From an uncultured Lentisphaerota bacterium (GTDB lineage Bacteria; Verrucomicrobiota; Kiritimatiellia; CAIQIC01), in the NCBI GenBank assembly GCA_903889245.1, contig CAISWQ010000100.1, positions 37,260 to 101,259 on the forward strand: DNA of 64,000 nt, in the 5' to 3' direction. Positions 13,904 to 43,210 of this stretch are shown piece after piece. The notes below the pieces were generated by a model. That model worked only from the letters and a program-made list of their open reading frames with translations, was not told the origin of the DNA and did no database searches. The translations under genes and the position numbers were made by a program. How positions within the stretch are numbered: the stretch's first letter is position 1; every line of letters begins with the position of its first letter.

Positions 13904-13904
13904 T

Positions 13905-14095: not shown

Positions 14096-14112
14096 TCTTC
14101 CGGGATTGCGTT

Positions 14113-15674: not shown

Positions 15675-15895
15675 CCTCCATGCTCGGCGCAGTATCAAGC
15701 CCCGAAAACCGCCATGATACCTAGAACTACTAGGTATCGTCCTCTTTCTGAAACAGCGAGAAGCTGGTGAGCTTCAATGGTGCGGACCTCCATGCTTGGC
15801 GCAATATCAAGCCCCGAGAACCGCCACGATACCTAGAACTACTAGGTATCATCCTCATTTTTGAGCAGCGAGAGGCTGGTGAGCTTTAACGGTGC
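15675..15895. repeat. Tandem direct repeat (2 x ~112 bp), each unit containing a perfect 9-bp-arm inverted repeat GATACCTAG-aacta-CTAGGTATC and a 14-codon mini-ORF
   Basis: Units starting cctccatgctcggcgcagtatcaagccccgaaaaccgccatgatacctagaactactaggtatc... and cctccatgcttggcgcaatatcaagccccgagaaccgccacgatacctagaactactaggtatc...; lower GC; intergenic between the anti-sigma gene and the membrane-protein gene. Confidence 0.8.
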
Positions 15896-16032
15896 CCACG
15901 GCACGCGATGCGCGCGAAAAGAAGCCGGTCGGCTCCGCAGGCGTGTGTTTTTCCCGGTTGGTTTTCAGTTGTCCGTAAAACCGCGGGGCCAGTGCTCTTG
16001 CGCGCTGGTGGCGCTTCCGTTACCGTCCGCGC

Positions 16033-16662: not shown

Positions 16663-16679
16663 GGCCGGCCCCGCCGCGG

Positions 16680-16795
16680 CGTTCCAAGCCTTGGGAAAAT
16701 GCAAGAGGTTTTTTCCGAGCCTTGGAAAAAACGGCGTGATTTTTTCCAAGGCCCGGAAAAACCGCTGGGTCCCTTTTCCAATGTTAGGAAAAGTC
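16680..16795. repeat. Palindromic repeat cluster 4 (4 copies, ~31-bp phasing)
   Basis: gttccaagccttgggaaaa / ttttttccgagccttggaaaaaa / ttttttccaaggcccggaaaaa / ttttccaatgttaggaaaag, between convergent genes. Confidence 0.8.
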
Positions 16796-17582
16796 AGTCG
16801 GGATTCCACGTGGCGGCGGCGAGCAGGATGCCGCCGATGTAGCGGCCGTGGTTGCGGCCGGTGGCGTCAGCGGCGACGCTGCCGCTGGTCTCGTCGAGCT
16901 TCCAATAACCGACGAGGTCGGGCTCGGCGAGAATCAGCGCGTCGTAGGCGGTGCTGCCGCGCGCCTGATAGTGGTCGCGGATGGCGTTGGCGGAGAGCGC
17001 CGCGCCGTAGATGGCGACGCGGCTGATCGCGCCGTTGAAGAAACTTTGCAGGTCGCGCGTGGCGAGGCGCACCGGCGCGCTGCCGTGCTGTGGCACGATG
17101 CCGTAGCCGGAGAGCGGGTCGCTGTCGCGCTGGTCGCCGTCACGGAAGATCGAGGTGCTGATGGCATCAATACGCCCGACGACATGGAGCCAGAGGCCCT
17201 CGGCGAGCGGGTCCTGGAAGTAACTGCCTGCGCCCTGGCCGCCGGACGGGTTGAAGGCGTAGAAACTGATGCGGTTGGCGCGGCCCTCGCTGTTGCCCGC
17301 CTGGTACATGCGCGCGACCCACTCGTGCCGCTGCGGCTCGCCCTTGCCGAGCCAGTGGACGTAGCCGCTGCCCTCGACGTTCGGCATCGCGAGCGAGTCG
17401 GGCCGCAGCCACGCCTCGACCGTCAGGCCGCCGTTGGTCGGCTGTGAATAGTCAGGGCTATCGGGGATTTCGACATAGCCGTCGTAGCCATCGAAAACAG
17501 GAGCTGCAAAGTTGGCTGCGGCCACCGGCACGGGATCGTCCGCGGGCGGATCGGAGAACAGGAAGTCCAGGTCAGGATTCAT
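16794..17582 (-). CDS. LamG / concanavalin-A-like lectin-glucanase domain protein
   Basis: Jelly-roll LamG-like sequence (GLTVEAWLRP...FDGAISRVAIYGAALSANAI); start at MNPDLDF within track ORF 16794..17612; no signal peptide seen; directly downstream of the rSAM fusion gene on the same strand. Confidence 0.65.
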   Translation of the reverse strand: MNPDLDFLFSDPPADDPVPVAAANFAAPVFDGYDGYVEIPDSPDYSQPTNGGLTVEAWLRPDSLAMPNVEGSGYVHWLGKGEPQRHEWVARMYQAGNSEGRANRISFYAFNPSGGQGAGSYFQDPLAEGLWLHVVGRIDAISTSIFRDGDQRDSDPLSGYGIVPQHGSAPVRLATRDLQSFFNGAISRVAIYGAALSANAIRDHYQARGSTAYDALILAEPDLVGYWKLDETSGSVAADATGRNHGRYIGGILLAAATWNPD

Positions 17583-17648
17583 GGTGGTTTGATAGCAGAA
17601 ACCCGGAGCCAAGGCAATCGGGCCGAGCCATTGTACGTAGAGACAACA

Positions 17649-19949
17649 TCAGAGAACTTTAATGACAATGTCACTGACAGAAGGGCGAGGAGAGAAATCC
17701 ACATCGCGCTTTATGTACACTTCCAAGGTGAGGCAACGCAACATGGTGTTGATGAAAATGTCTGTGGGTTTTACTGCGGGGGTACTCACGCCAGGACTGG
17801 CGGGACAATTCCAGTGACCGTCGGGGTCTTGTGCTTTGATCAACGCAACATAGACTTGTTGACAAAACGTTTCGTCGGCACGGGACGTGAACATGGCTAA
17901 AACAAGAAGATAAGACTGAAACAGCGCGTCACGCATACATTTCTGACTTAAATCAAGAACCGAGTTGGTGGCGGCTGTCGCGGTGTTCGCTTGGATCAGG
18001 CGATGCGCCATATCTAGTTTATTACCGTCTTGCTTGTCCAGGTAGACCATGCCGAGAATGCCTGCCCCTTGAACCTCTGCGCTAATCTTCTGGGTGTCTC
18101 GCAGAGCTGGTGAGTCACGGAATGCGCCCTCAATGAAAGTCTTTTCCATAAAAGCTTCTGCCTTGATCAGGGCTGCATCTGCATCAGGCGCACCCCACAA
18201 ACTCGTTCTTAGCGCCATGATCTGCCAGACAGAGAAAGTGAGGTTCCAATCCTCGTCCTTGGCATAATTCAAGCCCCATCCGCCGTCCGGTCGCTGTCCC
18301 TGGGCGATGTATTGTGCCGCCTTTTGAGACCGATCCAAAAGTTCAGGGATACGTGTCATGGCATAGGTTTTTGCCAGGGCATAGGTGGCGATGGCGTGAG
18401 TATAAGGATTGGCCGGACGGGGGGAGGTAGATTCAAGCGTTCCGTCACCAAGCTGCTTCCGGGAAAGAAAATAAATGGCCTTCTCAATTGTCGGTCCATA
18501 GGTGGCATCTGACATGGTGGCGGAATTCCCCAGATAACAGAGCAGTGCCAAGCTGGTACAAAGCACCGGGTCATCTTTGGACCACGACCCATCGGCATTT
18601 TGTTGTTCTTTCAACCACTGCAAGCACCGCACAATCGCTTGGTTTGCCTGAGTGAACTGCGGCCTTTCCCGCTTCCCTCCGCTGCCAGCTTTACTTCCAT
18701 ATCCCTTGCTGACGCCTTTGAGGATAAGCGGGGCTCTTATGGAACCTGTTGGGGAAATGATCGAGTCGAGTGGGATAGTTGTCGTTGGCTGGGTTGTAAA
18801 CTCGGTACCCTGTGCGCCAAGAGACCCCACTAAAAAACTGATTCCAGCAGCCTTTTTGAAAACGGGCGGTACACTCCAGACTTGCTTGAAACACTGCGTT
18901 CCCTGTTGGCGATGGAGCCAGCATCCACTACCGCATTCGAGCCACTGCTCACACGCGGCACATTTCGGCATGCGACGGGGGAATCGTTGTCGCTCAAACC
19001 GCGAGTTCCAAATGGTGGCGAACGCTTCCCGCGTCAGATTTCCTTCGCAATGTCTTGGGTCGAGGGTGGAGCACGGCATGACCGAGCCGTCCGGCCAGAC
19101 GGCGCACAGCGTACGGCCAGCGCCACAGAAGAAGACCTCGTCGCGGACCAACGGCTCCCACTGGCCGACGCGGCCCATTTCGTCGCACAAGGACACCGGA
19201 AACTCCGCGCGTTTGAGTGCGACGAACTTCAGCAGCTTGCGCAGTTGGGTGGTGCGGAGAAACAAATCCTTACGTTGGCGGGCACGGCCTTCGGGGATCA
19301 GCAGGTGGATGCCCCAGCGGTGAGCACTGCTCTGGCGGACAAGAGCAAAGGTTTCATCAAGGTACGGATAGTTGACGGTGGAGACCGTCGTGCCCGCGCA
19401 CACTACTGTCGTTGGCAATCCGGCAAAGAAACGCAGGCTGTTCAAGGCGGAATCATAGGCTGCGGGATGACCGCGAAAAGCGTTATGCACTTTGCGGGGG
19501 CCATCCAAGCTGACGGCGACAAATACCGGCGGATAGGCGCGAATGGCAATTTGTTGTGCAGGGGTTGGACAGGCCGCCGTATTTAGAGACCAAGCTAAGC
19601 GATGAGCTTTGAGATGGTCAAGGCATTGGGCGAGTTGCTCGTGTTGCAGTGGTTCCCCACCTGTTAGTAGCATCTCCGGATCACCCAAGGCGGTTGCTTC
19701 GCGGCATAACTTTTCGAACAGTTCCAAAGGCATGTCTTTCCGGTCGCGATTGTCGGCAGGTACTGCCAGACAGTGAGCGCAGGATAAATTACAGCGCAGG
19801 GTGAGATAGCATTGGATGACCGCCGGGGCTTGGGTGTAGCCAAATTTATTGAAGAAGGCATCGCCCCACGACGCTGTGAGTGGGACATGCATTCCGATTT
19901 TAGTATGTGCTCCCATGCCTGAACACCTTTTCCACCAAATTTCCTTCAA
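17649..19949 (-). CDS. Radical SAM / SPASM-domain enzyme fused to a C-terminal prenyltransferase/terpene-cyclase-like (alpha/alpha-toroid) repeat domain
   Basis: N-terminal half: CxxxCxxC (CNLSCAHC) and an auxiliary Cys-rich SPASM-like region (CGAGRTLC...MPCS...CEGN...CAACEQWLECGSGC). C-terminal half: QNADGSW, QRPDGGWG, QDPDGHW repeats. The gene is clearly lower in GC than the flanking DNA. Confidence 0.8.
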   Translation of the reverse strand: MKEIWWKRCSGMGAHTKIGMHVPLTASWGDAFFNKFGYTQAPAVIQCYLTLRCNLSCAHCLAVPADNRDRKDMPLELFEKLCREATALGDPEMLLTGGEPLQHEQLAQCLDHLKAHRLAWSLNTAACPTPAQQIAIRAYPPVFVAVSLDGPRKVHNAFRGHPAAYDSALNSLRFFAGLPTTVVCAGTTVSTVNYPYLDETFALVRQSSAHRWGIHLLIPEGRARQRKDLFLRTTQLRKLLKFVALKRAEFPVSLCDEMGRVGQWEPLVRDEVFFCGAGRTLCAVWPDGSVMPCSTLDPRHCEGNLTREAFATIWNSRFERQRFPRRMPKCAACEQWLECGSGCWLHRQQGTQCFKQVWSVPPVFKKAAGISFLVGSLGAQGTEFTTQPTTTIPLDSIISPTGSIRAPLILKGVSKGYGSKAGSGGKRERPQFTQANQAIVRCLQWLKEQQNADGSWSKDDPVLCTSLALLCYLGNSATMSDATYGPTIEKAIYFLSRKQLGDGTLESTSPRPANPYTHAIATYALAKTYAMTRIPELLDRSQKAAQYIAQGQRPDGGWGLNYAKDEDWNLTFSVWQIMALRTSLWGAPDADAALIKAEAFMEKTFIEGAFRDSPALRDTQKISAEVQGAGILGMVYLDKQDGNKLDMAHRLIQANTATAATNSVLDLSQKCMRDALFQSYLLVLAMFTSRADETFCQQVYVALIKAQDPDGHWNCPASPGVSTPAVKPTDIFINTMLRCLTLEVYIKRDVDFSPRPSVSDIVIKVL

Positions 19950-20025: not shown

Positions 20026-22140
20026 ATGCGCACCATGCAAACGCAAAACTCTACGATGGGCGGCTCGCGCCGCACGTGGTTCAAGCAACTGGGGCTGGCG
20101 ACCGCCGGCGCCGCGGTCGGCAGCGCGCTGCCGTCCGCCGCTGCCGTGCCGGACAAGAAGAAGCCCGCCACCGCCGAGCCGCTCGCGTCGCTGAACCGCT
20201 TCCCGCACATGGTGCAGGAATATTTCGTCGCGCGCGTCCGCGAGATCGAGGCGCTCGGCCAACAGCGCCGCGCGGCGTTGCGCAGCAAGCGCGATGCACT
20301 CGCCTACGTCCGCACCGTCCGCGAGAATATCCAGCAATGCTTCGGCCCGTGGCCCCAGAAATCGCCGTTGAACGCGCGCGTCACCGGCCGTGTCGAGCGC
20401 GACGCCTACACCATCGAGAAGGTGATCTTCGAGAGCCGGCCCGGCTTGCCGGTGACGGCGAACCTCTATGTGCCGCGCGGCCGCAAGGGCCGCCTGCCCG
20501 GCGTCGTCGGCACCTGCGGCCACTCGGTGAACGGCAAGGCGGCGGAGCCGTACCAAAGTTTTGCGCAGGGCCTCGCGCGGATGGGCTACGTGACGCTGAT
20601 CTACGATCCGTTCGGGCAGGGCGAGCGTATCCAGTACACCGATGAGAAGCTCAAGCCGCGGCACGGCACCAGCGTGGCGGAGCACCTGCACGCGGGCAAC
20701 CAGCAGTACCTGGTCGGCGAATTCTTCGGCGCGTGGCGCGCGTGGGACGGCATCCGCGCGCTCGACTATCTGCTGACGCGGCCGGAGGTGGACCCCGCGC
20801 TGGTCGGCGTCACCGGCAACTCCGGCGGCGGCACCCTGACCACGTGGCTTGCCGGCGTGGACCAGCGCTGGTGCATGGCCGCGCCCTCGTGCTTCGTCAC
20901 CACGTTCCGCCGCAACCTCGAGAACGAACTGCCCGCCGATACCGAGCAGTGTCCGCCGCGCGCGCTGGCGCTCAGCCTCGATCACGCCGATTTCCTCGCC
21001 GCGCTCGCGCCGAAGCCGGTGATTTTGTTGACGCAGGACAAGGATTACTTTGATCTGCGCGGTGGCCAGGAGGCGTTCGCGCGCCTGCAACGCCTCTACG
21101 AACTGCTCGGCGCGCCCGGCAACGTTGCGCTCTTCACCGGCCCGCGCGAGCACGGCTACTCGCAGGAGAACCGCGAGGCGATGTACCGCTGGTTCAACCG
21201 CGTGACGAAAATTTCTGACGCGCAGACCGAGCCCGCGCTGACGATCGAGAAGGACGAGACGCTCTGGTGCACGCCACACGGCCAGGTCGGCGAATTCCGG
21301 CCGCGCACCATCCACACCTTCACGCAGGAAAAGGCGCAGGCGCTTGCCGCGCAGCGCGGCGAGGTCGGCGGCCGCGCACTGCGGCGCGCCCTTCAGGACG
21401 TGCTCAAAATCCCCGACCGCTCCGGTCCGCCCGACTACCGCATCCTGCGCCCGCTCGCCGGCCGCAAGCATCCCGCCAAGCACACCGCCTGCTACGCGGT
21501 GGAAACCGAACCGGGCATCCTCGCGCTGCTCTACCTGCTCTCCAGCGAGTCGCTTGTTTCGCGCCCGCCGCGCGGCCGGTCGCGCGCGATCCTCTACGTC
21601 GCGCACCAGTCGGCCGACGCCGAGTTGCGCGAGGAGCCGCTGGTCGCCGACTTGCTCAAGGCCGAGCCGCAATCCGCGTTTTATGCCTGCGATGTGCGCG
21701 GCATCGGCGAGTCGCAGCCCGACACCTGCGGACGGAACCAATTCCTGGCGCCTTACGGCAGCGATTTTTTCTACAGCGCGCATGCGATCATGCTCGGCCG
21801 GCCCTACCTCGGCCAGCGCACCTTCGATGTGGTGAGCGTTTGCGAGCTGCTTTTCACCTGTGGCCACACGGAGATCCACCTCGTCGGCCGCGGCTGGGGC
21901 GCGCTGCCGGCGACCTGCGCCGCGCTGCTTTCAGACGCCGTCGCGCAGGTGACGCTGAAGAACGCGCCGACCTCCTACCACGCCATCGCCATGAGCGATG
22001 ACTACAAGTGGCCGCTCGCCGCGCTGCCGCCGGGCGTGCTGGAGAAGTTCGATCTGCCCGACTGCTATCGCGCACTCGCCGCGAAGAAATTGACGCAGCT
22101 CGAACCGTGGGGGCCTTGGGCTGCTCCTATTTCGGCGTGA
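20026..22140 (+). CDS. Tat-exported two-domain alpha/beta hydrolase, acetyl-xylan-esterase (AXE1)-like; paralog of 9844..11925
   Basis: Twin-arginine signal (SRRTWFKQLGLATAGAAVGSALP), ERDAYTIEKVIFES...NLYVP, GVTGNSGGG; same architecture as 9844..11925. Confidence 0.75.
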   Translation: MRTMQTQNSTMGGSRRTWFKQLGLATAGAAVGSALPSAAAVPDKKKPATAEPLASLNRFPHMVQEYFVARVREIEALGQQRRAALRSKRDALAYVRTVRENIQQCFGPWPQKSPLNARVTGRVERDAYTIEKVIFESRPGLPVTANLYVPRGRKGRLPGVVGTCGHSVNGKAAEPYQSFAQGLARMGYVTLIYDPFGQGERIQYTDEKLKPRHGTSVAEHLHAGNQQYLVGEFFGAWRAWDGIRALDYLLTRPEVDPALVGVTGNSGGGTLTTWLAGVDQRWCMAAPSCFVTTFRRNLENELPADTEQCPPRALALSLDHADFLAALAPKPVILLTQDKDYFDLRGGQEAFARLQRLYELLGAPGNVALFTGPREHGYSQENREAMYRWFNRVTKISDAQTEPALTIEKDETLWCTPHGQVGEFRPRTIHTFTQEKAQALAAQRGEVGGRALRRALQDVLKIPDRSGPPDYRILRPLAGRKHPAKHTACYAVETEPGILALLYLLSSESLVSRPPRGRSRAILYVAHQSADAELREEPLVADLLKAEPQSAFYACDVRGIGESQPDTCGRNQFLAPYGSDFFYSAHAIMLGRPYLGQRTFDVVSVCELLFTCGHTEIHLVGRGWGALPATCAALLSDAVAQVTLKNAPTSYHAIAMSDDYKWPLAALPPGVLEKFDLPDCYRALAAKKLTQLEPWGPWAAPISA

Positions 22141-23425
22141 GGACGAGCGCGCCGTGGCCGTAGAAGGTGCCGGCGATGGCGGCGATCATCAGGCAGGCGA
22201 GCGTCGCCGCCAACAGCGCGCGGAAGGCGACCGCCGCGAGGTTCCGCGTCTGGTTCGGCGCGAGCGCCGCGGTGCCGCCGACGAAGATCGCGATGCTCGG
22301 GATGTGCGCGAAGCCGCAGAGCGCATAGCTCGCCAGCACCGCGCTGCGCGGATCGTGCAGCGCGCCGCTGGCCATCAGCCGCGCGAGTTCCTGGTAGGCA
22401 GGAATCTCGGTCAGGACGAAGCGCAGTCCGAGCAGGCGGCCCACCTCCCACGCGTCGGCCGGCGAAACACCGATCAGCAGCGCGAAGGGATAGAAAACGT
22501 AGGCGAGCAGGTTCTCCAGCCGCAGGTTCCAGTGGACGTGGAAGATTTTTTCGATGAGCACGGCGATGCCATCGAGGCCGAGGTTGAGCAGCTCCATCAG
22601 GCCGATGAACGCGAGCAGCAGGACGATGACGCCCATGACGAGCTTGCCGCCGGCGTTCGCGCCGTTGATCGCGGACTCGATCAGGCTCGCGGGTTTTTCG
22701 TAATGCGGCGGCACGATCTGGCCGAGCGTCTCCGGCTGCTCCGTCTCCGGCATCAGCAGCTTCGCCATGACGATGGCCGCGGGCGCGCCGAGCAGCGAGG
22801 CGCTCATCAGGTGGCCCGCGATGGTCGGGAACGACTGGTGCAGAAGCATGACGTAGAGGCCGAGCGTGCTCGAGGCGACCGTCGCGAAGCCGGAGGTCAG
22901 CACGAGCGCCAGCTCCGAGCGCGTCATCGTGGCGAGGTAGGGGCGGACGACGACCGCGGCCTCGATGCCGACGAAGATGTTGCTCGCCGTCGCCAGCGAC
23001 TCCGCGCCGCTGATGCGCAGCAGGCGGGTGAACAGGCGCGTGAAGCCGTTGACGATGTGCTGCATCACCTTGAGGTAATAGAGCACGTCCATCAGCGTCG
23101 CGAAGAAAACGATGGTCGGCAGCGCCTGCAATGCGAGGATGAAACCGGGCGAGCCCGGCTGGCCCGGTCCGGCGGCGAGCGGGCCGAAGCAGAACTTGAT
23201 GCCCGCTTGCGCGGCGTCGAGCACTTTCATCACGGCGTCGTTGAGCCAGAGGAAGAGCGTCGTGCCCGCCGGCACGAAGAAGATGAACGCGCCGAAGACG
23301 AGCTGCAGCGCGAGCCCACCGGCCACCGCGCGCCAGTTGAACACCTTGCGGTTGGCCGAAAGCAGCCAGCCGAGAAAAATCAGCACGAACAGGCCGCCGA
23401 AGCTGATCAGGTTATAGCGATTCAT
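22127..23425 (-). CDS. nupC: NupC/CNT-family concentrative nucleoside transporter
   Basis: CNT-family TM topology and conserved segments (GFILALQALPTIVFF..., GIEAAVVVRPYL, FAHIPSIAIFVGG); start at MNRYNLISFGG within track ORF 22127..23488. Confidence 0.85.
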   Translation of the reverse strand: MNRYNLISFGGLFVLIFLGWLLSANRKVFNWRAVAGGLALQLVFGAFIFFVPAGTTLFLWLNDAVMKVLDAAQAGIKFCFGPLAAGPGQPGSPGFILALQALPTIVFFATLMDVLYYLKVMQHIVNGFTRLFTRLLRISGAESLATASNIFVGIEAAVVVRPYLATMTRSELALVLTSGFATVASSTLGLYVMLLHQSFPTIAGHLMSASLLGAPAAIVMAKLLMPETEQPETLGQIVPPHYEKPASLIESAINGANAGGKLVMGVIVLLLAFIGLMELLNLGLDGIAVLIEKIFHVHWNLRLENLLAYVFYPFALLIGVSPADAWEVGRLLGLRFVLTEIPAYQELARLMASGALHDPRSAVLASYALCGFAHIPSIAIFVGGTAALAPNQTRNLAAVAFRALLAATLACLMIAAIAGTFYGHGALVLTPK

Positions 23426-23526
23426 GGTGTTCTCCCGCGCGCCGGACTCTAGCAAATCCCCGCCGTGGTTCCGCATGAATTTCGCCATCGGCCTGCAACG
23501 AACAAAACCAATCCAAGGGCCGCGGT

Positions 23527-23585
23527 CTGTAGCGGCGGCCTATGGCGGCCGACGGCGACCACAGGTCGCCGCTACAGCGGAACAA
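23527..23585. repeat. 60-bp imperfect-palindrome element, copy 1 (CTGTAGCGGCGGCC...GGTCGCCGCTACAGCGGAACAA)
   Basis: Followed by further GC-rich hairpins (gcggggttttcaaccccgc; gtgggcgggagctacagctcccgcccac) and a C9 homopolymer. Confidence 0.75.
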
Positions 23586-23760
23586 GCTGCTTCCAGCCTG
23601 CCTCCTTGTGGGCGGGGTTTTCAACCCCGCGTTCTCCAACCTAAACCACTAAACCCTTTTGGCTCCTCTTCCTGTGGGCGGGAGCTACAGCTCCCGCCCA
23701 CCAGAACTGGCAGAGGAATACCCCCCCCCGGCCTGTCATGCACCGCAGAGGAGGCACCGC

Positions 23761-23793
23761 TTGACGGAAAGGCGGAATGTCAGATATTCTGAC
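23761..23793 (+). promoter_or_regulatory. Putative vapBC promoter (TTGACG...TATTCT) with overlapping perfect 15-bp palindrome GTCAGATATTCTGAC (candidate VapB operator)
   Basis: Read directly ~25-55 bp upstream of the vapB ATG; AbrB/MazE-type antitoxins typically autoregulate through palindromic operators. Confidence 0.5.
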
Positions 23794-23814
23794 TAGCAAC
23801 GAAAGGACCTAGCC

Positions 23815-24120
23815 ATGATTGCGGAAGTCAGTCGCGTGGGGAAACGGGGTACGGTGGTGCTGCCGGCCAGCCTGCGGCGGCGGTTCGGCATGGAGGAAGG
23901 CGCCCTGCTGATGGCCGAGAGCCATGAGGATGGCATCCTGCTGCGGCCCGCGGCCGTGGTGCCGATGGAAACCTACTCGCCCGCCCGCAAGGCGGAATTC
24001 CTGCTGAACAATGCTGTCACCCCGGCGGACTATCAGCAGGCCGTGCAGGATGTTCGGGCGCTGGGCCTCGATCCGGCGCAGATCAAACATCGCAAACCCA
24101 AGGGCGCGGCGCGCGCATGA
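23815..24120 (+). CDS. vapB: AbrB/MazE/SpoVT-family antitoxin (VapB-like)
   Basis: N-terminal swapped-hairpin beta-barrel signature (VGKRGTVVLPASLRRRFGMEEGALL); 4-bp overlap with the downstream PIN gene. Confidence 0.8.
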   Translation: MIAEVSRVGKRGTVVLPASLRRRFGMEEGALLMAESHEDGILLRPAAVVPMETYSPARKAEFLLNNAVTPADYQQAVQDVRALGLDPAQIKHRKPKGAARA

Positions 24121-24512
24121 AGCGTGTCTTTCTGGATGCCAATGTCCTGTTCTCCGCCGCGTGGCGCGAGGAAAACGGCCTGCTGAAACTCTGGCGACTG
24201 GCGGGCGTGGCCTTGGTGACCTCCGCCTATGCTGCCCGCGAAGCCGAAATCAATCTGCCGGACGACGCCCAGCGCCAACGCCTGCGTCATCTTCTCCAAC
24301 GTGTTGACGTTCTGCCACCCGCCACAGCCCTGCCTCCCCTGCCGTCCGGCGTGCACTTGCCGGCCAAGGACGCACCGATCTTGCAGGCGGCCATCGCCGC
24401 CGATGCCACTGTGCTGCTGACCGGCGATGTGACACACTTCGGTCCCTATTTTGGCAAGCGACTTGGCGGGGTGCAGGTGCTGCCGCCCGCCGCGTTCCTA
24501 GCCGCCGGTTGA
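24117..24512 (+). CDS. vapC: PIN-domain ribonuclease toxin (VapC-like)
   Basis: VFLDANVL... start with conserved acidic residues (D6, E, D near the C-terminus LLTGDV); ATGA overlap with vapB. Confidence 0.8.
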   Translation: MKRVFLDANVLFSAAWREENGLLKLWRLAGVALVTSAYAAREAEINLPDDAQRQRLRHLLQRVDVLPPATALPPLPSGVHLPAKDAPILQAAIAADATVLLTGDVTHFGPYFGKRLGGVQVLPPAAFLAAG

Positions 24513-24540
24513 ATTGGAAGTCCTGTTGGTGATGATGCAG

Positions 24541-24603
24541 CCCTGTAGCGGCGGCCTGTGGCCGCCGACGGCGACCGCAGGTCGCCGCTACAGCGGAACA
24601 AAC
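24541..24603. repeat. 60-bp imperfect-palindrome element, copy 2
   Basis: cctgtagcggcggcctgtggccgccgacggcgaccgcaggtcgccgctacagcggaacaa, followed by the tgtgggcggggtttccaaccccgc ... gcggggttgcaaaccccgcccaca long hairpin (24626-24700). Confidence 0.8.
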
Positions 24604-24838
24604 TACATACAACCTGACTGCTTTGTGGGCGGGGTTTCCAACCCCGCGAACCCCAACCAACGCCAGCCAGCGCGGGGTTGCAAACCCCGCCCACAAAACA
24701 CCTGCGGACCAAACGCGCCGCCTTGACACCCGCCCCCCACTTCCTACACTTTCGCGGCCTTGGCCGCTGGCGAGCGTGATGCCAAAAATATGCTACTCCG
24801 CAGCAGGGTATGATGGATACCGTGTCACGGAAAAGTGA

Positions 24839-25246
24839 ATGGCGGGCATTAATGACATGACAAACGACACAGTCATTATTCACGGAAGTCCGTGGAAGGC
24901 GATTGATATACAAGATGCTATTGCCGTTTGTCGTGGTCGCACTTGGACATTTCACAAGTGGGAAGCATCACCAGCACTGATTCAGAAGTCCGGCACGACT
25001 TCCAAATTCATAGGCCAGAAATACGATCCGACGAAATACAGACTCGATCCTAAAGGTTGGACGCACGATCATTGTCAAATTTGCTGGTGGACGATAAGTG
25101 ACGCACGAGACGAGGAAAGCAATTCTGGATTTACAGATGGCCGCGATTGGATTTGTACCGAATGTTTCAATAAATTCATGATGGAGAAAAGGGGAGCCCA
25201 ACCACCCGCCGGAGATTATTCGCTCGAAGACGTGCGAGAACCTTAA
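24839..25246 (+). CDS. Hypothetical zinc-ribbon protein (two CxxC pairs), low-GC ORF
   Basis: HDHCQICWW...WICTEC; markedly AT-richer than neighbours; flanked by copies 2 and 3 of the 60-bp element. Confidence 0.5.
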   Translation: MAGINDMTNDTVIIHGSPWKAIDIQDAIAVCRGRTWTFHKWEASPALIQKSGTTSKFIGQKYDPTKYRLDPKGWTHDHCQICWWTISDARDEESNSGFTDGRDWICTECFNKFMMEKRGAQPPAGDYSLEDVREP

Positions 25247-25300
25247 CCGTACGTTCGTTTGAATAGGAGTTTTTCTCAGGCTTGGAAAACGTGACACAGT

Positions 25301-25357
25301 TCCTGTAGCGGCGGCCTGTGGCCGCCGATGGCGACCGCAGGTCGCCGCTGCAACAAA
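25301..25357. repeat. 60-bp imperfect-palindrome element, copy 3 (3' end degenerate)
   Basis: cctgtagcggcggcctgtggccgccgatggcgaccgcaggtcgccgctgcaac; a single degenerate TTCCAAG-type palindrome lies just upstream (25271-25291). Confidence 0.75.
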
Positions 25358-25367
25358 AGGAAACAGC

Positions 25368-26432
25368 ATGAAGAAGATGATTCTGGCGGCGATGTTGGGC
25401 GGTGCGTTGGCGGCGGGTGCGGCGGAGCTGGATTTGCATGCGCTGCTACAGCCGGTGCCGGCGAGTGCTGCGTTCCGCGATCCGCAGTTCAACATCTGGT
25501 GCGGCTCCATGGTCAAGGGCGACGACGGCAAGTATCACCTCTTCTACTCGCGCTGGCCGCGCAAGCTCGGCCACGTGGCGTGGGTCACGCACTCGGAGGT
25601 CGCGCACGCCGTGGCGGAGAGCCCGTTCGGTCCCTATAAGCACGCCGACGTGACGCTGCCACCGCGCGGCAAGGAATTCTGGGACGGGCTCTGTACGCAC
25701 AACCCGACGGTGATCCGCGCGAACGGCAAGTACCTTCTCTATTACATGGGCAACACCGGCGATGGCGTCGTGCAGAAGCCGCTGAACTGGACGCACCGCA
25801 ACCACCAGCGCATCGGCGTCGCCATCGCGGACAAACCCGAAGGGCCGTGGCAGCGCTTCGACAAACCCGTCCTCGATGTCAGCAGCGACACGAACGCGCC
25901 TGACGCACTGGTGGTCACGAATCCTTCGATCTGCCAGCGGCCCGATGGCGGCTTCCTGATGGTTTATAAAGGCGTGGCGAAGAAGGCGAAGCTGCCGTTT
26001 GGCGGACCGGTGGTGCATCTGGTGGCAACGGCCGACGCCGCGACCGGGCCGTTCGTGAAAAAGCTCGATCCGATCTTCACCAAACCCGGCGAGCACTTTG
26101 CCGCCGAGGATCCCTTCATCTGGCGCGATGCCGACCGCTACCGCGCCGTGGTCAAGGACAACCACGGCATTTTCACGGGCAAGGGTTACTCGCTCGCGTT
26201 GTTCGAGTCGCGCGATGGCTTCGATTGGAAACCCTCCGAGCACGTCTTCGTGACCACACCGCAGCTCACGTGGGCCGATGGCCGTACGCAGAAGATGGAT
26301 GCGCTGGAGCGGCCGCAGCTCTATTTGGAAAACGGCGTGCCCGTCGCCTTGTTCTGCGCCGCCGCCGAGGCCAAGGGCCGCGACGGCTCGTTCAATGTCC
26401 AGATTCCACTGAAGAAAATGACCAAGCCGTAA
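25368..26432 (+). CDS. Secreted glycoside-hydrolase family 43-like (five-bladed beta-propeller) protein
   Basis: Signal peptide MKKMILAAMLGGALAAGAA; GH43/GH117-like segments (FYSRW...HSEVAHAVA, DPFIWRDADRYRAV). Family call is tentative. Confidence 0.6.
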   Translation: MKKMILAAMLGGALAAGAAELDLHALLQPVPASAAFRDPQFNIWCGSMVKGDDGKYHLFYSRWPRKLGHVAWVTHSEVAHAVAESPFGPYKHADVTLPPRGKEFWDGLCTHNPTVIRANGKYLLYYMGNTGDGVVQKPLNWTHRNHQRIGVAIADKPEGPWQRFDKPVLDVSSDTNAPDALVVTNPSICQRPDGGFLMVYKGVAKKAKLPFGGPVVHLVATADAATGPFVKKLDPIFTKPGEHFAAEDPFIWRDADRYRAVVKDNHGIFTGKGYSLALFESRDGFDWKPSEHVFVTTPQLTWADGRTQKMDALERPQLYLENGVPVALFCAAAEAKGRDGSFNVQIPLKKMTKP

Positions 26433-26447: not shown

Positions 26448-27014
26448 TCAGCGCATGAGCAAGCGGAGAATCGTTTCAAGACTGCTTTCGGTGAGCCAGT
26501 CATCGCGGTCGTTCGAAAATGCTTCTTCGATCGGACCCGGCATGTTGGGGAGCTTGGCCACGTCATGTTCAAATGCTGCCTTGCGTTTGGTGTCGGACTC
26601 CAATTCAGCCATGCGTTGCTTCAGGTCCTGTGTATCACGGTAGGCGGGAGTGGTCCGATAATCGAGTTGGAGCAGCGCCAGTTCGCCGCCATCGAGCCAG
26701 ATCAGCGCGCAAGCCTTGCACAGGTCCAGGTGCAGGGTGAGGCCGGGCAGCCGGATGGGCCGCTTCTCCATCGTCAGGTGACACTTGGGACACCTGATCT
26801 GCGCCAGCGGTTCGGTGCGATATTCCTCGCTGGCCTCGGCCTTCAAGTCGGTCGGCGGTTTGCGGGCGGAGCGCTTGATGGTTTCGAGGCGGGTGATATC
26901 CACCAAGTGGCCCTTGCAGTCGCCGCAGTACAGAACCTTGAAGCCGGAGTAGTCCACCTCCGTCAGCGGCACGTTGCAATGCGGACACATTCTCATGGCG
27001 ATCCCGGGCGCCAC
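26448..27014 (-). CDS. Hypothetical protein with two zinc-ribbon motifs
   Basis: CPHCN...CGDCKG and CPKCH...CKAC; no further assignment. Confidence 0.5.
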   Translation of the reverse strand: MAPGIAMRMCPHCNVPLTEVDYSGFKVLYCGDCKGHLVDITRLETIKRSARKPPTDLKAEASEEYRTEPLAQIRCPKCHLTMEKRPIRLPGLTLHLDLCKACALIWLDGGELALLQLDYRTTPAYRDTQDLKQRMAELESDTKRKAAFEHDVAKLPNMPGPIEEAFSNDRDDWLTESSLETILRLLMR

Positions 27015-27497: not shown

Positions 27498-27887
27498 TTA
27501 TTCGGTAGGCAGACCCAAGGACAGCCGGGCGGCAGAGCGGAAAGCGCGGCACAGCTTGCGGGCCTGCATCGCCGTCTCGCGAGTGGCGGTTTCGCCGGGA
27601 TAACGGAATTCGACGGCGGCATCGGTAAGGTGGGCAAGGTCGGAGCGGAAAGTCTCCCAGAGCGGCTCCAAAGGCAGATTGATATCCAACAGCCTGACAA
27701 GGTCGTGAATTTTCTGAATGGGCAAACCGGCGGCACACAGGCGCGCTTTCAGATATTTCTCGGCACACTGCTGGGCGTGGAAACAAATGCCGTCATAGTT
27801 GGGATTCTTCCGGGCGCGCGCCTCACGCTCCAAGGTGCTGAAATCGGCCTCGGCCTTGGCGATCCATTCAGCGACCAGCGGCTTCAT
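27498..27887 (-). CDS. HEPN-domain toxin (HepT-like)
   Basis: HEPN fold with an R-x4-6-H-like motif region (FRYPGETATRE); gene overlaps the upstream MNT gene. Confidence 0.7.
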   Translation of the reverse strand: MKPLVAEWIAKAEADFSTLEREARARKNPNYDGICFHAQQCAEKYLKARLCAAGLPIQKIHDLVRLLDINLPLEPLWETFRSDLAHLTDAAVEFRYPGETATRETAMQARKLCRAFRSAARLSLGLPTE

Positions 27888-28188
27888 ACAACACTTTGCC
27901 TTTTTCTATGATGTCGCGCATGAATTGATCGCCCAGCGCAAGCCGCCGCCTGATCTTGGCCGGTGACCTCACCAGCAGGTCCAGCGGAAACTGCGGGCGC
28001 AATTTCAGGCGCATGGCCACGGACTGTTGGATGGGCGGCTGACGCTTGCGCGAGACTACCAGCAGATCCACATCCGAGTCGGCGTGTGGTTTGCCATGGG
28101 CATAGGAGCCAAACAACACAATCCGCTCCGGACGGAATTCATCCGCCAGTCTCCGGCTGAAAGCCCTGATTTGCCTGGTCGTTACCAT
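27868..28188 (-). CDS. Minimal nucleotidyltransferase (MNT) antitoxin (MntA-like)
   Basis: GS-x9-13-D-x-D motif (LFGSYAHGKPHADSDVDLLV); start at MVTTRQIRAF within track ORF 27868..28350. Confidence 0.75.
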   Translation of the reverse strand: MVTTRQIRAFSRRLADEFRPERIVLFGSYAHGKPHADSDVDLLVVSRKRQPPIQQSVAMRLKLRPQFPLDLLVRSPAKIRRRLALGDQFMRDIIEKGKVLYEAAGR

Positions 28189-28228
28189 GACGTCATCCGT
28201 GTCGAAGCTAAGCCAAGCCCGCTGCCTC

Positions 28229-28296
28229 GGCAAGATTTCATTTCGCCGCAACCAGCAGCAGCGGGCGCGGGCAGTCGCGGATGATTTTGGCGGCGA
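28229..28296. repeat. ~68-bp direct repeat, left copy (duplicate of the uspA 3' end)
   Basis: ggcaagatttcatttcgccgcaaccagcagcagcgggcgcgggcagtcgcggatgattttggcggcga; identical except 1 nt to 31862..31929. Confidence 0.8.
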
Positions 28297-28364
28297 GCCA
28301 GCTTTCGGTTTATTGTTCCTGATGGAGTAAGGCGACAAAGGACAGTTCATAGTCGCAGCTTGAT

Positions 28365-29669
28365 CTAAGACAGTTTGAGTTCTTCTTCTGGCTTCCGTAA
28401 GGCGAAGTTCTTGGCCTTCCGAGTGGTCTGCTCTTCGACAACTCCATCCTTCACCATATGTTTCAACCAGTCTTGTAGTTGCGCTTTTCGGACCTTCAGA
28501 ATTATCACTAGTTCATCGACTTTTCGTGGCTTGTCCAAGGCGTTCACAATGAGGGGCTTTACCGTGTCATATACAGAGGCCAATAACGAGGCGGGTGTCT
28601 CACGCACAACCATTCTTTCTTCGCTTGAGGTTGTTGAGGGCTCCATGTATGTCGGCGGCGGAATCTCGTTCTTGGACTGGGCCTGCTCGACTGATTCTGA
28701 CATTACGGGTGCAGTCTCGGCCGGCGCACTCGCGGATTGGAGTGCTTTATTAAGGTTGGCGGACATCGCCTCTGCCGGGAGAGGGATACCTCCTATTCGT
28801 AATAATTCGGTGTTTCCTTTCGGCACATTGGGCCCAGTTCTGATGAAAACAGGCCGGCCGCTCTTGCGCCGCAATTCCTCATCGGCACCCGCCCAGGTGC
28901 CACCCTCCTGATAGTCTGAACTGACTACAACCGCGAAGTCGGCCAGCGCGTAGATATACTTGTTCCGGCCCATCGCGTTGCCAACGTTGAACCCCGCTTC
29001 CGGGTTGTACGTGGAGATCAACACCAGTTGGCCGCTACGAATACCCTCGCGGTACTTCCCCGAAACCGCCGCTCGCAAGAGGCTATCGGCCATGACCCCG
29101 ATGACAGTCCCGCCCTCCTCAAACGCGCCGTGCATGGCGGTTTCGTCAACCCCGCGCGCCGCGCCGGAAATCAACTGCATGCCGGACTGAGCCGCGCTAC
29201 GTCCCACGGCGCGCGCGAACGCCTCCGCTTCCGCGTCGATGTGCCTGGATCCTACGACAGCCAATCCGCCTTTGGACAGCAAGGACCGGTCTCCCGCGCC
29301 ATATAGGATTGGCGGTGCGCAGCGCTTGAGGTGTTGCTTGAGCTTATGTGGATAGGCTTCGTCACTACGGCAGAGGACCCAAAGACCCTTGTTCACCCAT
29401 TTTTCAATGGCAATCGCCATGCTCGCCCCGCGTGCCAGCAGGGCCTTCATCCGTGCCGGTCCCACGGGCGCAAAGGCGTCACTCAAAGCCCCTTGGTGCT
29501 CTTCGTTCAGAAGATCCGCAGGCCACCATTTCTTACTGACCAACCACGCCGCAACTTCATCGTATTCCTTGATGTTCAGCGGTTGCGCGCCGATGTCATC
29601 GCCTGCGCCAAACCGCCCGCACAGAAGGAGAATGGCCTTCGCATTCTCCGTGATTTGCTCAGTCGTCAT
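28365..29669 (-). CDS. DprA/Smf-like (SLOG Rossmann) protein with C-terminal winged-helix-like domain; candidate antitoxin partner (PsyrA/ShosA-like)
   Basis: LAVVGSRH..., ISGAARGVDETAMHGAFEEGGTVIGVMADSL..., NRNKYIYALADFAVVV: DprA Rossmann signature. Confidence 0.8.
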   Translation of the reverse strand: MTTEQITENAKAILLLCGRFGAGDDIGAQPLNIKEYDEVAAWLVSKKWWPADLLNEEHQGALSDAFAPVGPARMKALLARGASMAIAIEKWVNKGLWVLCRSDEAYPHKLKQHLKRCAPPILYGAGDRSLLSKGGLAVVGSRHIDAEAEAFARAVGRSAAQSGMQLISGAARGVDETAMHGAFEEGGTVIGVMADSLLRAAVSGKYREGIRSGQLVLISTYNPEAGFNVGNAMGRNKYIYALADFAVVVSSDYQEGGTWAGADEELRRKSGRPVFIRTGPNVPKGNTELLRIGGIPLPAEAMSANLNKALQSASAPAETAPVMSESVEQAQSKNEIPPPTYMEPSTTSSEERMVVRETPASLLASVYDTVKPLIVNALDKPRKVDELVIILKVRKAQLQDWLKHMVKDGVVEEQTTRKAKNFALRKPEEELKLS

Positions 29670-29681
29670 GTCTCACACTCC

Positions 29682-31799
29682 TCAATCCGTTCGCGGCGAG
29701 TTCAGCGCCAAGGCCAGGGGCAACACAGCAGGACAACCCGCCTGCCGTAGAAGCGCCGCCGCCACGGTGAACGTCCAGCGAGAATCTACCATGTCATCCA
29801 CGAGCAGGACTGGCCCGCTGGGCATACCCGTCTGATCCACCTCAAACACCCCGTCCAGATTCTTCGCCTGCTGAAAACTGTTCTGCATGTGTTTCTGTTG
29901 TTCGTTCTGTCGAATCTTCTTCAGACACGGCACAAACGGAATTCCGATTCGCGCCGCCAAACGACGGGCAAAGTCTGGTACGAGGTCGGGGTGTGTCAGC
30001 GATGGTATGCAGGTCAGCCATGCCGGTGGCGGTTGCGGCTTCCACTCCTCAAGCATTTGCAGGCAACCGTCCGCCAGTTCGTCCCGGAACTTACCGATCT
30101 TGTACTTGTCCTCTCGGACCATGTGCCCCCAGCCAGCATCTCCCCACAGCGACAGCGCCCGCCCCTGTTCGGCCATGATGTCCATACCGATGGCGGCTCC
30201 CTTCAACGGGTAGTGCGCGAAGATGTCCTTGGCGGGCCACTTCTTGCGTGGCTCGACCGACTGGTAACTTCGCTTTAGGAAGATGGCCGCGCGATTGGCG
30301 AGGTCAATGTTGACCGTCGTCGGAATCAGGTCGCGCCGGAGGCAATTCGCACACTTGCCACAAGCTTGCACCGTCTTGTCATCAAGCGCCCGCCCGAGAT
30401 AGACCATGAGACATTCCTTCGTCTGCATGTAGTCAATCATCTGCGCCTGCTCCGCTTGGCGGAGTTCACAAAGCCGGCTAATCTTCTCATGGTTCATCTG
30501 GTAGTTGACGGGTGTAGCGTGCCAGGCACTCTTGATCTTCGCCACCGGCGACGGCGTCTCAACAGCCAGCAGTTTCAGGCACTTCTGGATGTCGCTATAG
30601 GACAGGTTCAACTGCTTCTGCATCATCGGGACCGACAGACCGCCGTCGGCAATATTCAACGCGCCAAGAATTTTGTCCACATGTGCCTGGGGCGGGAATG
30701 CGCTTCGAATGAAGAAATCCGTAATCTCCTTGTCTTCTTCCCCGCCCATCAAGATCCCGTAGGCATAATCCACGGCCCTGCCGGCGCGGCCGACTTGCTG
30801 GTAGTAATGCACCACAGAACCAGGTCGCTGGAAGTGGACTACAAAACCAAGGTCCGGCTTGTCGAATCCCATGCCAAGGGCGACCGTGGCAACCAGTGCC
30901 TTCACCTCGTTATTCAACAGGCGGTGCTCCAACTGCTCGCGGCGTTGCTTTTCGCTCTCGGCCCCCTGTTCCTCCGCCTCAGAATCAACCTTTGAGTGGT
31001 AGGCTTCCACGTTGTACTCGTTGGCCTTCAGCCATTCCGTGACGCGCTCGGAATCCCGGACGGTCAGAGTGTAGATGATTCCGCTTCCTGGCAGGTACTT
31101 TAGATGTTCCGCGAGCCAAGCCATGCGGGCAGGCGGATTCGGAAGCCAGATGTTCTGGAGGGCCAGTGTCTCGCGGATCAGTGGGCCGCGTATCACATTC
31201 AAGGCCCCGAGTTGGTGCGCCACGTCCTTGACAACGCGGTCATTCGCCGTGGCTGTTGTCGCCAGGATGGGTATGTTCTTCGGGAGCGCTTGGAGAACTC
31301 GCACGATACGCCGGTAGTCAGGCCGGAAATCGTGGCCCCAGTCAGAGATACAATGCGCCTCGTCCACCACAAAAAGACCGACCCGGTTCGCCACCTGTTG
31401 GAGCACCCGTTCCCGGAAATCGTCGTTCGCCAGTCGTTCCGGAGAAATCAGAAGGATATCAACCTTATTCGCCAGCAACCGGGCTTCGATCGCCCGCCAA
31501 TCATCCGTGTTACTGGAATTGATTGTCTCGGCCAGAATCCCGATCCGATTCGCCGCCATGATCTGATTGCGCATCAGGGACAACAGTGGCGACACCAGTA
31601 ACGTCAAGCCCTTGCCATGGTCCCGCAGAAGCCGCGTGCCCAGGAAATAGACCATGCTTTTTCCCCAACCGGTCTTCTGGACGACCAACTGACCCTGACT
31701 CTTCAGAATCCCTTCGATACACTCCCATTGGCCGGCACGAAAATCCGCCGCCGGATGAGCGAGAGCTGTACGAAGTAACTTCAACCCGATATCCTTCAT
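29682..31799 (-). CDS. RecQ-family DNA helicase fused to a C-terminal phosphoribosyltransferase (PRTase)-like domain (PsyrT-like)
   Basis: Walker A (KTGWGKS), DEAH box (VVDEAHCISDWGHDFRPDY), helicase-C motifs, RecQ zinc-binding cysteines (CGKCANC); C-terminal GPVLLVDDMVDSRWT resembles the PRTase PRPP-binding loop. Confidence 0.82.
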   Translation of the reverse strand: MKDIGLKLLRTALAHPAADFRAGQWECIEGILKSQGQLVVQKTGWGKSMVYFLGTRLLRDHGKGLTLLVSPLLSLMRNQIMAANRIGILAETINSSNTDDWRAIEARLLANKVDILLISPERLANDDFRERVLQQVANRVGLFVVDEAHCISDWGHDFRPDYRRIVRVLQALPKNIPILATTATANDRVVKDVAHQLGALNVIRGPLIRETLALQNIWLPNPPARMAWLAEHLKYLPGSGIIYTLTVRDSERVTEWLKANEYNVEAYHSKVDSEAEEQGAESEKQRREQLEHRLLNNEVKALVATVALGMGFDKPDLGFVVHFQRPGSVVHYYQQVGRAGRAVDYAYGILMGGEEDKEITDFFIRSAFPPQAHVDKILGALNIADGGLSVPMMQKQLNLSYSDIQKCLKLLAVETPSPVAKIKSAWHATPVNYQMNHEKISRLCELRQAEQAQMIDYMQTKECLMVYLGRALDDKTVQACGKCANCLRRDLIPTTVNIDLANRAAIFLKRSYQSVEPRKKWPAKDIFAHYPLKGAAIGMDIMAEQGRALSLWGDAGWGHMVREDKYKIGKFRDELADGCLQMLEEWKPQPPPAWLTCIPSLTHPDLVPDFARRLAARIGIPFVPCLKKIRQNEQQKHMQNSFQQAKNLDGVFEVDQTGMPSGPVLLVDDMVDSRWTFTVAAALLRQAGCPAVLPLALALNSPRTD

Positions 31800-43190: not shown

Positions 43191-43210
43191 ACGTCGCATG
43201 GCTGTGATCC

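Follow-up and report, generated by a model that had tools for sequence, protein, structure and literature searches.

Repetitive extragenic palindromes (REPs) and bacterial interspersed mosaic elements (BIMEs) are defined in PMC8266576, which calls a gene for a REP-associated tyrosine transposase (RAYT) flanked by its own REPs a REPtron and describes an in vitro assay of RAYT cleavage and strand transfer on single-stranded REP. The subject here is a 51-nt palindrome that occurs three times between a nucleoside transporter gene and a gene for a GH43-like glycoside hydrolase in the DNA of an uncultured Lentisphaerota bacterium (assembly GCA_903889245.1, contig CAISWQ010000100.1, positions 37,260-101,259, forward strand; this whole stretch of 64,000 nt is called the window, and positions are counted from its first letter). 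The three copies, which bracket a vapBC toxin-antitoxin (TA) pair and an orphan zinc-ribbon open reading frame (ORF), are very probably REP doublets in a BIME-like mosaic, at a variable locus whose gene turnover most likely proceeds by homologous recombination.

REPtron/RAYT systems are known from E. coli, Pseudomonas and Stenotrophomonas (PMC8266576). Nunvar (2010) and Bertels and Rainey (2011) are also reported to have described such systems. With them the REP family of the window and a lake-metagenome contig described below (L188) have in common hairpins on a GTAG foot, copies that across the family are dispersed and lie mostly between genes, an arrangement in doublets (as in BIMEs and in REPINs, REP doublets that form hairpins) and a single REP-flanked RAYT between housekeeping genes. 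The short perfect stems of the window resemble the 'group 3' type of REP. The window doublets differ in their spacer, which is 1 nt against the more usual 20-100 nt, and in a covariation pattern that favours two hairpins over the single long REPIN hairpin. As in the BIMEs of E. coli, palindromic units and conserved linkers form a mosaic that is tandem and intergenic and stands at gene ends or between cistrons; unlike them, the window mosaic has a promoter-like motif in one linker and whole genes between reiterated units.

Closer in lineage, the passages on Opitutus terrae in Di Nocera et al. (2013, PMC3733652) describe a genome highly enriched in GTAG REPs, with several REP families coexisting. 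There, GTAG-17 forms head-head dimers whose partners lie 1-2 bp apart, GTAG-20 has its tag mostly mutated to GTGG, and REP clusters are reiterated along with flanking DNA. On these parallels, both repeat types of the window are of kinds that those passages already describe for the lineage: O. terrae belongs, like the window's host, to the Verrucomicrobia (Opitutaceae-like), and the two have in common the GTAG tag, short perfect stems, head-head dimers 1-2 bp apart, a coexisting GTGG family and clusters reiterated along with flanking DNA. The likeness is one of description, and the window's host is an uncultured freshwater relative; those passages do not tie REPs to a variable gene slot.

Judged from its differing gene content in relatives, the locus also appears comparable to the minimal mobile elements of Neisseria (Saunders & Snyder 2002; Snyder 2007), as the definition given in PMC3787668 has them, with the transporter and GH43 genes as flanks. 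It differs from that definition in that the exchange boundaries fall in repeat-built frames inside the interval and not only in the flanking genes. For exchange through homologous recombination following DNA uptake, the signatures at the locus are indirect, namely the homology-insert-homology structures described below.

GTAG-tagged REP doublets and a linked transposase gene

The initial annotation had recognised a 60-bp element in three same-orientation copies at ~23527, ~24541 and ~25301. The copies stand on the + strand at 23527-23577, 24543-24593 and 25303-25353, but their palindromic core measures 51 nt. With copy 2 as the reference (0 mismatches), copies 1 and 3 differ from it at 3 positions each; the number of palindrome matches expected in shuffled sequence is 0, and no fourth copy occurs anywhere in the 64-kb window. 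The layout is CTGTAG-CGGCGGCC-TGT-GGCCGCCG-A-CGGCGACC-GCA-GGTCGCCG-CTACAG, a heterodimer of two GTAG-tagged REP hairpins inverted head to head, 1 nt apart, with their tags outward. Each half-unit consists of a GTAG foot, its own 8-bp stem and a 3-nt loop, and the stems of the two halves are unlike (GGCC/GGCC vs GACC/GGTC), each being self-complementary.

Doublet 1, in the divergent promoter region of the transporter gene, has one mismatch in its left stem, and doublet 2 stands 30 nt downstream of the vapC stop codon. Doublet 3, whose right end has decayed (CTGCAA), ends 15 nt before the GH43 start codon and so lies between GH43 and the zinc-ribbon ORF, the occupant of the slot downstream of doublet 2. 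The tail CGGAACAA is found on the 3' side of copies 1 and 2 only, and each of these copies together with the next hairpin makes up a 102-nt composite direct repeat (23527-23628 vs 24543-24644, 82% identical). The doublets can fold into one long hairpin or into a three-way form (a 6-bp base plus two hairpins) of similar energy, at -23 to -28 kcal/mol (z about -5); on the + strand the long hairpin is the minimum-free-energy fold (-27.7 kcal/mol). A lone hairpin between convergent genes at 9800-9822 (CGGCGGCC-TGT-GGCCGCC) has the stem and loop of the left REP with CTCG in place of the GTAG foot and is possibly a decayed single REP.

The link to a transposase comes from L188, a lake-metagenome contig of 2.65 kb with a 159-aa ORF (1132-1611) flanked by a phosphodiesterase gene and aroB. 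With the NCBIfam equivalog model NF047646, 'REP-associated tyrosine transposase', this ORF reaches 84.7 bits (cutoff 80), and it contains an HUH motif (PDHLHLF) and a Tyr region (WRYVEQNPV); a Pfam scan reported no match for it. The RAYT probes served as leads only, the L188 match then being validated with NCBIfam. Both flanks of the gene, at 1055-1116 and 1625-1686, carry a REP pair that reads CGGCGACC-GCA/ATA-GGTCGCCG-CTACAG, then CGGAAGCTTCTT, then CTGTAG-CGGCGGCC-TGT-GGCCGCCG, and thus contains both REP types of the window doublet halves. A 32-nt string, GACGGCGACCGCAGGTCGCCGCTACAGCGGAA, is common to window positions 24566-24597 (doublet 2) and both flanks. This arrangement is a REPtron in a related lake-metagenome organism.

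Within the window itself, the called genes between 3.4 and 47 kb contain no Y1, integrase, transposase or other recombinase domain; the absence of an integrase, reported by the initial annotation, thus holds for ~20 kb to either side of the palindromes. A weak match to a RAYT probe at ~18.3 kb falls inside a 766-aa radical-SAM/SPASM ORF and was rejected. A frameshifted, truncated HUH/Y1 RAYT-like remnant (RRLVLSDRFFFITCRL...LLPDHWHAIL...RQPRFFERV) lies near a REP at 4827-5220 of L073, a contig of a Terriglobia metagenome-assembled genome (MAG).

Dispersal of the REP family

A scan with the half-site GTAGCGGCGRCCNNNGGYCGCCG matched at least 113 stretches in contigs chosen as one genome per species. 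Several loci each were found in the Opitutaceae-like MAGs Opitutus PR.011, LJ_bin-4696 and Loclat_bin-07389, the last two of which carry the label Lentisphaerae; their copies have TGT/TGC loops and, in some, the compact doublet. Dozens of matched contigs belong to a few Terriglobia MAGs, with doublets that have a 17-nt AT-rich spacer and a TCT loop, and several half-site loci to a Gemmataceae MAG. A scan of JGI metagenomes for the TGT/TGC/TAT-loop form yielded at least 120 contigs, mostly from freshwater lakes and ~30 of them from one sample, many sharing the 24-nt half-to-half offset of the window. Among the loci fetched, the compact doublet is present at 79 distinct sites (55 unique sequences).

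An almost identical REP half-site, with the same CGGCGGCC stem and a TCT loop, is very abundant in several MAGs of Terriglobia (Acidobacteriota) and also occurs in a MAG of Gemmataceae (Planctomycetota). That three phyla share a REP sequence suggests that their RAYTs are related or were transferred, and the pattern search is itself biased towards seeing such sharing.

Neighbourhood analysis places the element mainly between genes. A crude GC3-based gene caller put 74 of 128 sites in intergenic DNA and 10 more across a gene end, so that at least 58-66% are intergenic, against ~10-12% expected at ordinary coding density by our own estimate; since this caller predicts too many ORFs where GC is high, the observed figure is a lower bound. 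The 150 proteins nearest to the sites match 151 Pfam families, chiefly housekeeping ones, including tRNA synthetases, ribosomal protein L20, PGK, citrate synthase, NADH dehydrogenase, Fpg and guanylate kinase. Among the families listed for the 75 neighbours of at most 165 aa, TA antitoxins number only two (one Phd/YefM, one VapB). With so few TA neighbours and so many housekeeping ones, the element family is not associated with cassettes or TA genes. The orientation of the heterodimer relative to neighbouring genes shows no bias (35 same, 38 opposite).

Covariation supports two separate hairpins

The 55 unique compact doublets reveal which of the two folds has been conserved. Their GTAG and CTAC columns are at least 90% conserved. 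Under the two-hairpin structure, 97.9% of cells are paired and 48 are doubly compensated, against 8.0 +/- 2.5 in shuffles, a value reached by none of 500 shuffles; in controls slid along the alignment, the paired cells drop to 25-69%. The single long hairpin pairs 88.9% of cells, against 89.0% in shuffles, and has 13 doubly compensated cells, against 14.3 in shuffles, a value reached by 355 of 500; covariation of the long-hairpin pairs in this set is therefore not above shuffles. One half of each doublet was ascertained by a pattern that fixes most of its stem, while the other half was free, and the same compensated changes occur in the free half. This supports maintenance of the hairpin structure by selection, as two separate 8-bp hairpins and not as one long hairpin. 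Because covariation favours the two hairpins and not the long form, the single GTAG-footed hairpin is the conserved unit, which fits a transposase that recognises folded single-stranded REPs.

A mosaic of repeat families

The further GC-rich hairpins of the initial annotation are present at 23606-23631, 23669-23706 and 24619-24648/24671-24700, all on the + strand, and constitute a second REP family (HP2) with a GTGG tag and a GCGGGGTT/AACCCCGC stem. The single copy at 23606-23631 closes the 102-nt composite repeat. The variant at 23669-23706 is a GTGG-headed palindrome, CTGTGGGCGGGAGCT/AGCTCCCGCCCACCAG (-17.1 kcal/mol, z = -4.7). The remaining two hairpins form an HP2 doublet (24619-24700) of inverted GTGG REPs, with 30-nt arms that are 93% complementary and lie 22 nt apart (-32.7 kcal/mol, z = -7.4). 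Like the GTAG doublet, HP2 is dispersed: 49 of the 254 loci fetched contain it, in 84 copies altogether.

At both 23527 and 24543 the repeats follow one order: a GTAG doublet, a linker of ~30 nt, a GTGG REP (single or doublet) and a promoter-bearing linker. The same order recurs in the relatives L130, L132 and L133 described below, and the repeats at the locus form a BIME-type mosaic.

A third and more abundant intergenic repeat family consists of tandem ~33-nt units around the palindrome TTTTCCAAGSCTTGGAAAA. Its copies in the window lie at 2056-2109, 3721-3769, 8823-8874, 16682-16797, 34212-34358, 48418-48537, 58385-58477 and 60249-60314, and the family also occurs in contigs L117 and L121. 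A degenerate copy, TTTTCTCAGGCTTGGAAAA, stands at 25271-25289 directly upstream of doublet 3, with similar ones before doublets in L130 and L133.

A variable locus between a transporter and a GH43 gene

The transporter-GH43 interval is a variable locus, with different gene content between the same flanks in close relatives. Five contigs (L114-L116, L255, L256) are identical to the window, with the same arrangement and no variation, and the syntenic MAG contig L011 stops exactly at the repeat region and is uninformative there. L123/L124 (transporter 82%, GH43 78% identical) are collinear with the window over ~14 kb; in them the transporter and GH43 genes are divergent and 123 bp apart, and the spacer is AT-rich and free of repeats. 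In L121 (transporter 93% identical), the transporter promoter is followed by 47 nt with half an HP2, then by the equivalent of window 24716-24770, where the contig ends. With the promoter joined in this way, doublet 1, vapBC and doublet 2 are absent from L121.

The left part of L130 (VapC 84% identical) has the transporter, a REP half with HP2, an extra 326-aa ORF and vapBC, and its right part a doublet, an HP2 doublet, the promoter frame, a 138-aa ORF, a doublet and GH43. The 138-aa ORF replaces the zinc-ribbon ORF in the slot, and the two have no similarity. L132, with the same VapC protein as L130, is without the 326-aa ORF. All but the last ~15 codons of its transporter gene have been deleted, and at 74-135 the remainder joins a REP right half directly, through a short CCGGCG microhomology, as an example of REP-associated deletion. 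L133/L134 (VapC 75% identical) carry vapBC, a doublet with HP2, a DUF433/PIN-like pair on the opposite strand, a doublet with HP2 and promoter frame, and GH43, beyond which hemerythrin, MNT/HEPN and Usp genes follow as in the window. In L127-L129 (VapC 82% identical), vapBC occupies another locus, after an adenosine deaminase gene. HP2 copies stand to either side of it there, a GTAG doublet is absent, and downstream come the same promoter frame and an orphan ORF of 105 aa. Two of the samples that gave L127-L129 also gave contigs of the 86% relative.

The presence or absence of vapBC and slot ORFs thus differs among L121, L123/L124, L130, L132 and L133. Together with the doublet halves that flank the L188 RAYT gene, this variation bears out the more conservative suggestion of the initial annotation, REP-like elements at an insertion hotspot. 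Its term 'defence hotspot' is not borne out, the slot genes being TA pairs and orphan ORFs and not recognised defence systems.

Exchange boundaries

In all four comparisons the vapBC homology block has the same limits, beginning at 23759-23761, just upstream of the operon's own -35 box, and ending at 24505-24513, which is the vapC stop codon or a point just before it. In the comparison of the window with L130, homology extends from the promoter motif at 24723-24750 through the leader to ~24822, is lost across the ORF and resumes at 25256, 10 nt past the stop codon, to continue through a 47-nt tail, doublet 3 and GH43. Because homology is kept on both sides, only the ORF (24823-25255) has been exchanged, inside a repeat-built frame.

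The left part of this frame, promoter plus leader (24716-24822, +), reads CCTTGACACCC...TACACT...ATGGATACC. It has a TTGACA box, a 16-nt spacer and TACACT at 24723-24750, a motif with 10/12 promoter matches and the top score in the region. The frame is found upstream of different ORFs in L121, L127/L128, L130, L132 and L133: at two loci it is followed by ORFs, three in all, that are unrelated to one another, and in L133 GH43 comes directly after it. The conserved leader ending in ATGGATACC (window 24780-24822; L130 ~4260-4300; L128 ~950) could be either a small upstream ORF or a leader with a regulatory function. The right part, the 3' frame of the slot (25256-25302, +; ACGTTCGTTTGAATAGG...), is conserved and holds the degenerate third-family palindrome.

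Upstream of vapBC, L133 carries a decayed duplicate of the GH43 promoter, leader and ~33 signal-peptide codons, which switches abruptly into the vapBC promoter. The window vapBC, flanked by the 102-nt composite repeat, has the same homology-insert-homology arrangement as the L133 insert. Inserts bracketed by duplicated homology point to homologous recombination as the probable route. Such an arrangement would be expected from single-crossover integration of a circle, from unequal exchange or from a double crossover with a donor carrying the same mosaic. The composite repeats of the window and L130 are 77-80% identical, and orthologous and paralogous copies are not separable at these identities.

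Proposed mechanism and alternatives

A domesticated HUH/Y1 transposase encoded by a single-copy gene (RAYT, or TnpA-REP) would spread REPs of the GTAG type in trans, recognising the folded single-stranded hairpin together with its GTAG foot, and the present evidence agrees with this. Doublets, GTGG REPs and the promoter-bearing linker have been reiterated as a mosaic in the divergent transporter-GH43 intergenic region, a variable locus that in different relatives holds nothing, vapBC, another TA pair or orphan ORFs without relation to each other. Recombination is the most likely route of gene turnover; mosaic units present in several copies would, with the promoter frames, serve it as portable homology, so that inserts would come to be bracketed by duplicated homology and could be lost again by recombination between copies.

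Several points weigh against this account. The window itself contains no RAYT gene, the REPtron evidence coming from the related contig L188 and not from the host's own genome. Within the 64 kb the element occupies one locus only, with three copies, which does not demonstrate a high copy number in that genome, and the intergenic estimate depends on a crude ORF caller. L121 keeps only half an HP2 and no GTAG doublet, so that recombination between the two composite repeats would not by itself account for it. As to the direction of change, insertion or loss, L133 suggests that vapBC beside GH43 may be old. The mechanism of the slot swap is read from its boundaries only.

A more ambitious interpretation, which we consider unlikely, is that the repeat-built frame is a portable gene-exchange platform, in which recombination at dispersed REP mosaics would swap unrelated small ORFs and TA pairs in and out behind a resident promoter, and would do so at more than one locus. 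Its left side may comprise the GTAG doublet, GTGG-REP doublet, promoter and conserved leader, and its right side the 47-nt tail and a GTAG doublet. This interpretation draws on one locus family. If true, it would amount to integron-like gene capture without an integrase, built from REP/RAYT repeats, and would be of wider interest.

RAYT-mediated capture, in which REP-bracketed segments move as single-stranded circles in the manner of the insertion sequences IS200/IS605 with vapBC and the orphan ORFs as passengers, is improbable. RAYTs are related to IS200/IS605 transposases (PMC8266576), REP-family hairpins bracket vapBC at two loci (window/L130/L132 and L127), and the three doublets have one orientation in common. 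However, the vapBC block (23759-24513) stops short of the hairpins, the flanking repeats differ by locus (GTAG doublets in the window, HP2 only in L127), and the ORF swap between the window and L130 leaves the doublet out. Moreover, the left side of the L133 insert is duplicated gene sequence and not hairpins, doublet orientation is unbiased genome-wide, and PMC8266576 reports no evidence of tnpA-REP mobility and leaves the mechanism of REP dissemination unresolved.

Still less probable is that the palindromes are only local terminators or regulatory hairpins arisen by tandem duplication, with no mobility and no part in gene turnover. They do fold strongly, stand just after vapC and after the zinc-ribbon ORF, and include a 102-nt unit that was duplicated locally. 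Yet more than 100 unrelated contigs hold near-identical copies, which also flank a RAYT gene, and the strong covariation between loci that are otherwise unrelated points to a constraint common to the whole family; a terminator scan did not pick up the doublets, whose stems are not followed by a T-tract. A local role in addition to dispersal belongs to the proposed mechanism itself. In such positions, at the end of a gene or between two cistrons, REPs are known to stabilise the mRNA upstream of them or to attenuate read-through, and by analogy of position with REP/BIME function, the hairpins here probably also act locally as transcript-end or intercistronic stabiliser structures.

An integron-like array of the kind termed CALIN (cluster of attC sites lacking integron integrases), the other reading raised by the initial annotation, with the palindromes as attC sites and the integrase encoded elsewhere, is scarcely credible: small genes, including a TA pair whose own promoter is typical of chromosomal integron cassettes, do alternate here with similar palindromes in one orientation, and slot contents vary among relatives, but neither strand has an RYYYAAC (R'') or GTTRRRY (R') core within 30 nt of any of the copies, the folded arms have no bulges, their differences being compensated within each half and not left as extrahelical bases, the exchange boundaries (~24822 and 25256, and those of the vapBC block at 23759-24513) fall outside the palindrome, the element belongs to a REP family that flanks a RAYT gene and otherwise stands beside housekeeping genes, and no tyrosine recombinase is encoded at 3.4-47 kb. 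An Rfam scan of the region returned sub-threshold miRNA-like hairpin matches only, Rfam having no attC family.

Genes of the interval and of the wider window

The conserved left flank (22127-23488, -) encodes a CNT-family nucleoside transporter (Pfam Nucleos_tra2_N, Gate, Nucleos_tra2_C). Its homologues of 82-93% identity have 432 aa, and nucleotide homology with relatives stops at ~23440-23483 at this end of the gene; the true start is likely the ATG at 23425, which gives the 432-aa form. The conserved right flank (25368-26432, +) encodes a GH43-like secreted glycoside hydrolase (Pfam Glyco_hydro_43), with a full-length orthologue of 78% identity in L123.

The gene content assigned to the two inter-palindrome segments, vapBC between copies 1 and 2 and an AT-richer two-CxxC ORF between copies 2 and 3, agrees with Pfam and GC analysis. 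The antitoxin gene (23815-24120, +) encodes a vapB-like protein of AbrB/MazE fold (PF04014, 30.5 bits, cutoff 24.7) and overlaps by 4 nt (24117-24120) the gene for a vapC-like PIN toxin (24117-24512, +; PF13470 PIN_3, 28.4 bits, cutoff 27), which has more than 2700 homologues. By gene order and predicted domains the pair appears to be a VapBC-like type II toxin-antitoxin. It is preceded by a promoter-like site (23761-23793, +; TTGACG, a spacer of 16-18 nt, GATATT/TATTCT), and the palindrome GTCAGATATTCTGAC (23779-23793) that overlaps this site is likely the operator of vapBC autoregulation.

The zinc-ribbon ORF (24839-25246, +) encodes 135 aa with two CxxC motifs, at 47% GC against 64% for the window. 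It has four homologues of 41-71% identity among 5.8 billion proteins, with the invariant motifs GW-HDHC-ICWWT and W-CTECF--F; their contexts (L125, L126) are unrelated and without flanking palindromes. No Pfam family matched above its cutoff, a PDB sequence search gave generic zinc-finger noise only, and with an AlphaFold model of moderate quality (pLDDT 61.6), Foldseek found nothing in the PDB at E <= 0.001. The ORF is a real but very rare gene, an orphan that was probably acquired horizontally, an origin with which its low GC fits.

Downstream of GH43, a double Zn_ribbon_TFIIB protein (26448-27014) is absent from the collinear relative L123. A second TA-type pair at 27498-28350, HEPN (27498-27887) and the nucleotidyltransferase MNT (within 27868-28350), adjoins hemerythrin. 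A near-perfect direct repeat of ~70 bp (28228-28297/31861-31930) duplicates the 3' end of usp and brackets a ~3.6-kb block at 28.3-31.9 kb with a DprA/SLOG-like protein (28365-29669) and a DEAD/RecQ-like helicase (29682-31799). L123 has one copy of this repeat and is without the block; the repeat is an att-like signature of an integrated element, and no integrase is encoded there.

Farther away, within 13259-19949, the 766-aa ORF named above (17649-19949; low GC, ~54-57%) is a fusion of radical-SAM/SPASM with squalene-hopene-cyclase-like repeats that lies beside a Laminin_G_3 protein. Nearby are genes for an ECF sigma factor (13259-13903) and, at 14113-15450, for an anti-sigma-like protein of zf-HC2 type that contains SQHop-cyclase repeats. 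Two adjacent small ORFs without Pfam match (42849-43190 and 43405-43758, within 42800-43817) match each other's region and several places in L060, which suggests a small paralogous gene family. The gene dnaA (45703-47058) lies ~20 kb from the palindromes, so that the window is probably near the replication origin.

Implications

The main value of the analysis is a corrected classification, an integron-looking palindrome array being assigned to the REP/BIME clusters. Like cases can be sorted by the same criteria: tag and hairpin anatomy, covariation, RAYT link, neighbour census and exchange boundaries. For the compact doublet, evolution keeps two separate hairpins over one long one. A REPtron-linked REP family is added for uncultured freshwater Opitutaceae-like bacteria, and the locus offers a modest example of dispersed repeats that would supply homology for the gain, loss and swapping of TA and orphan genes.

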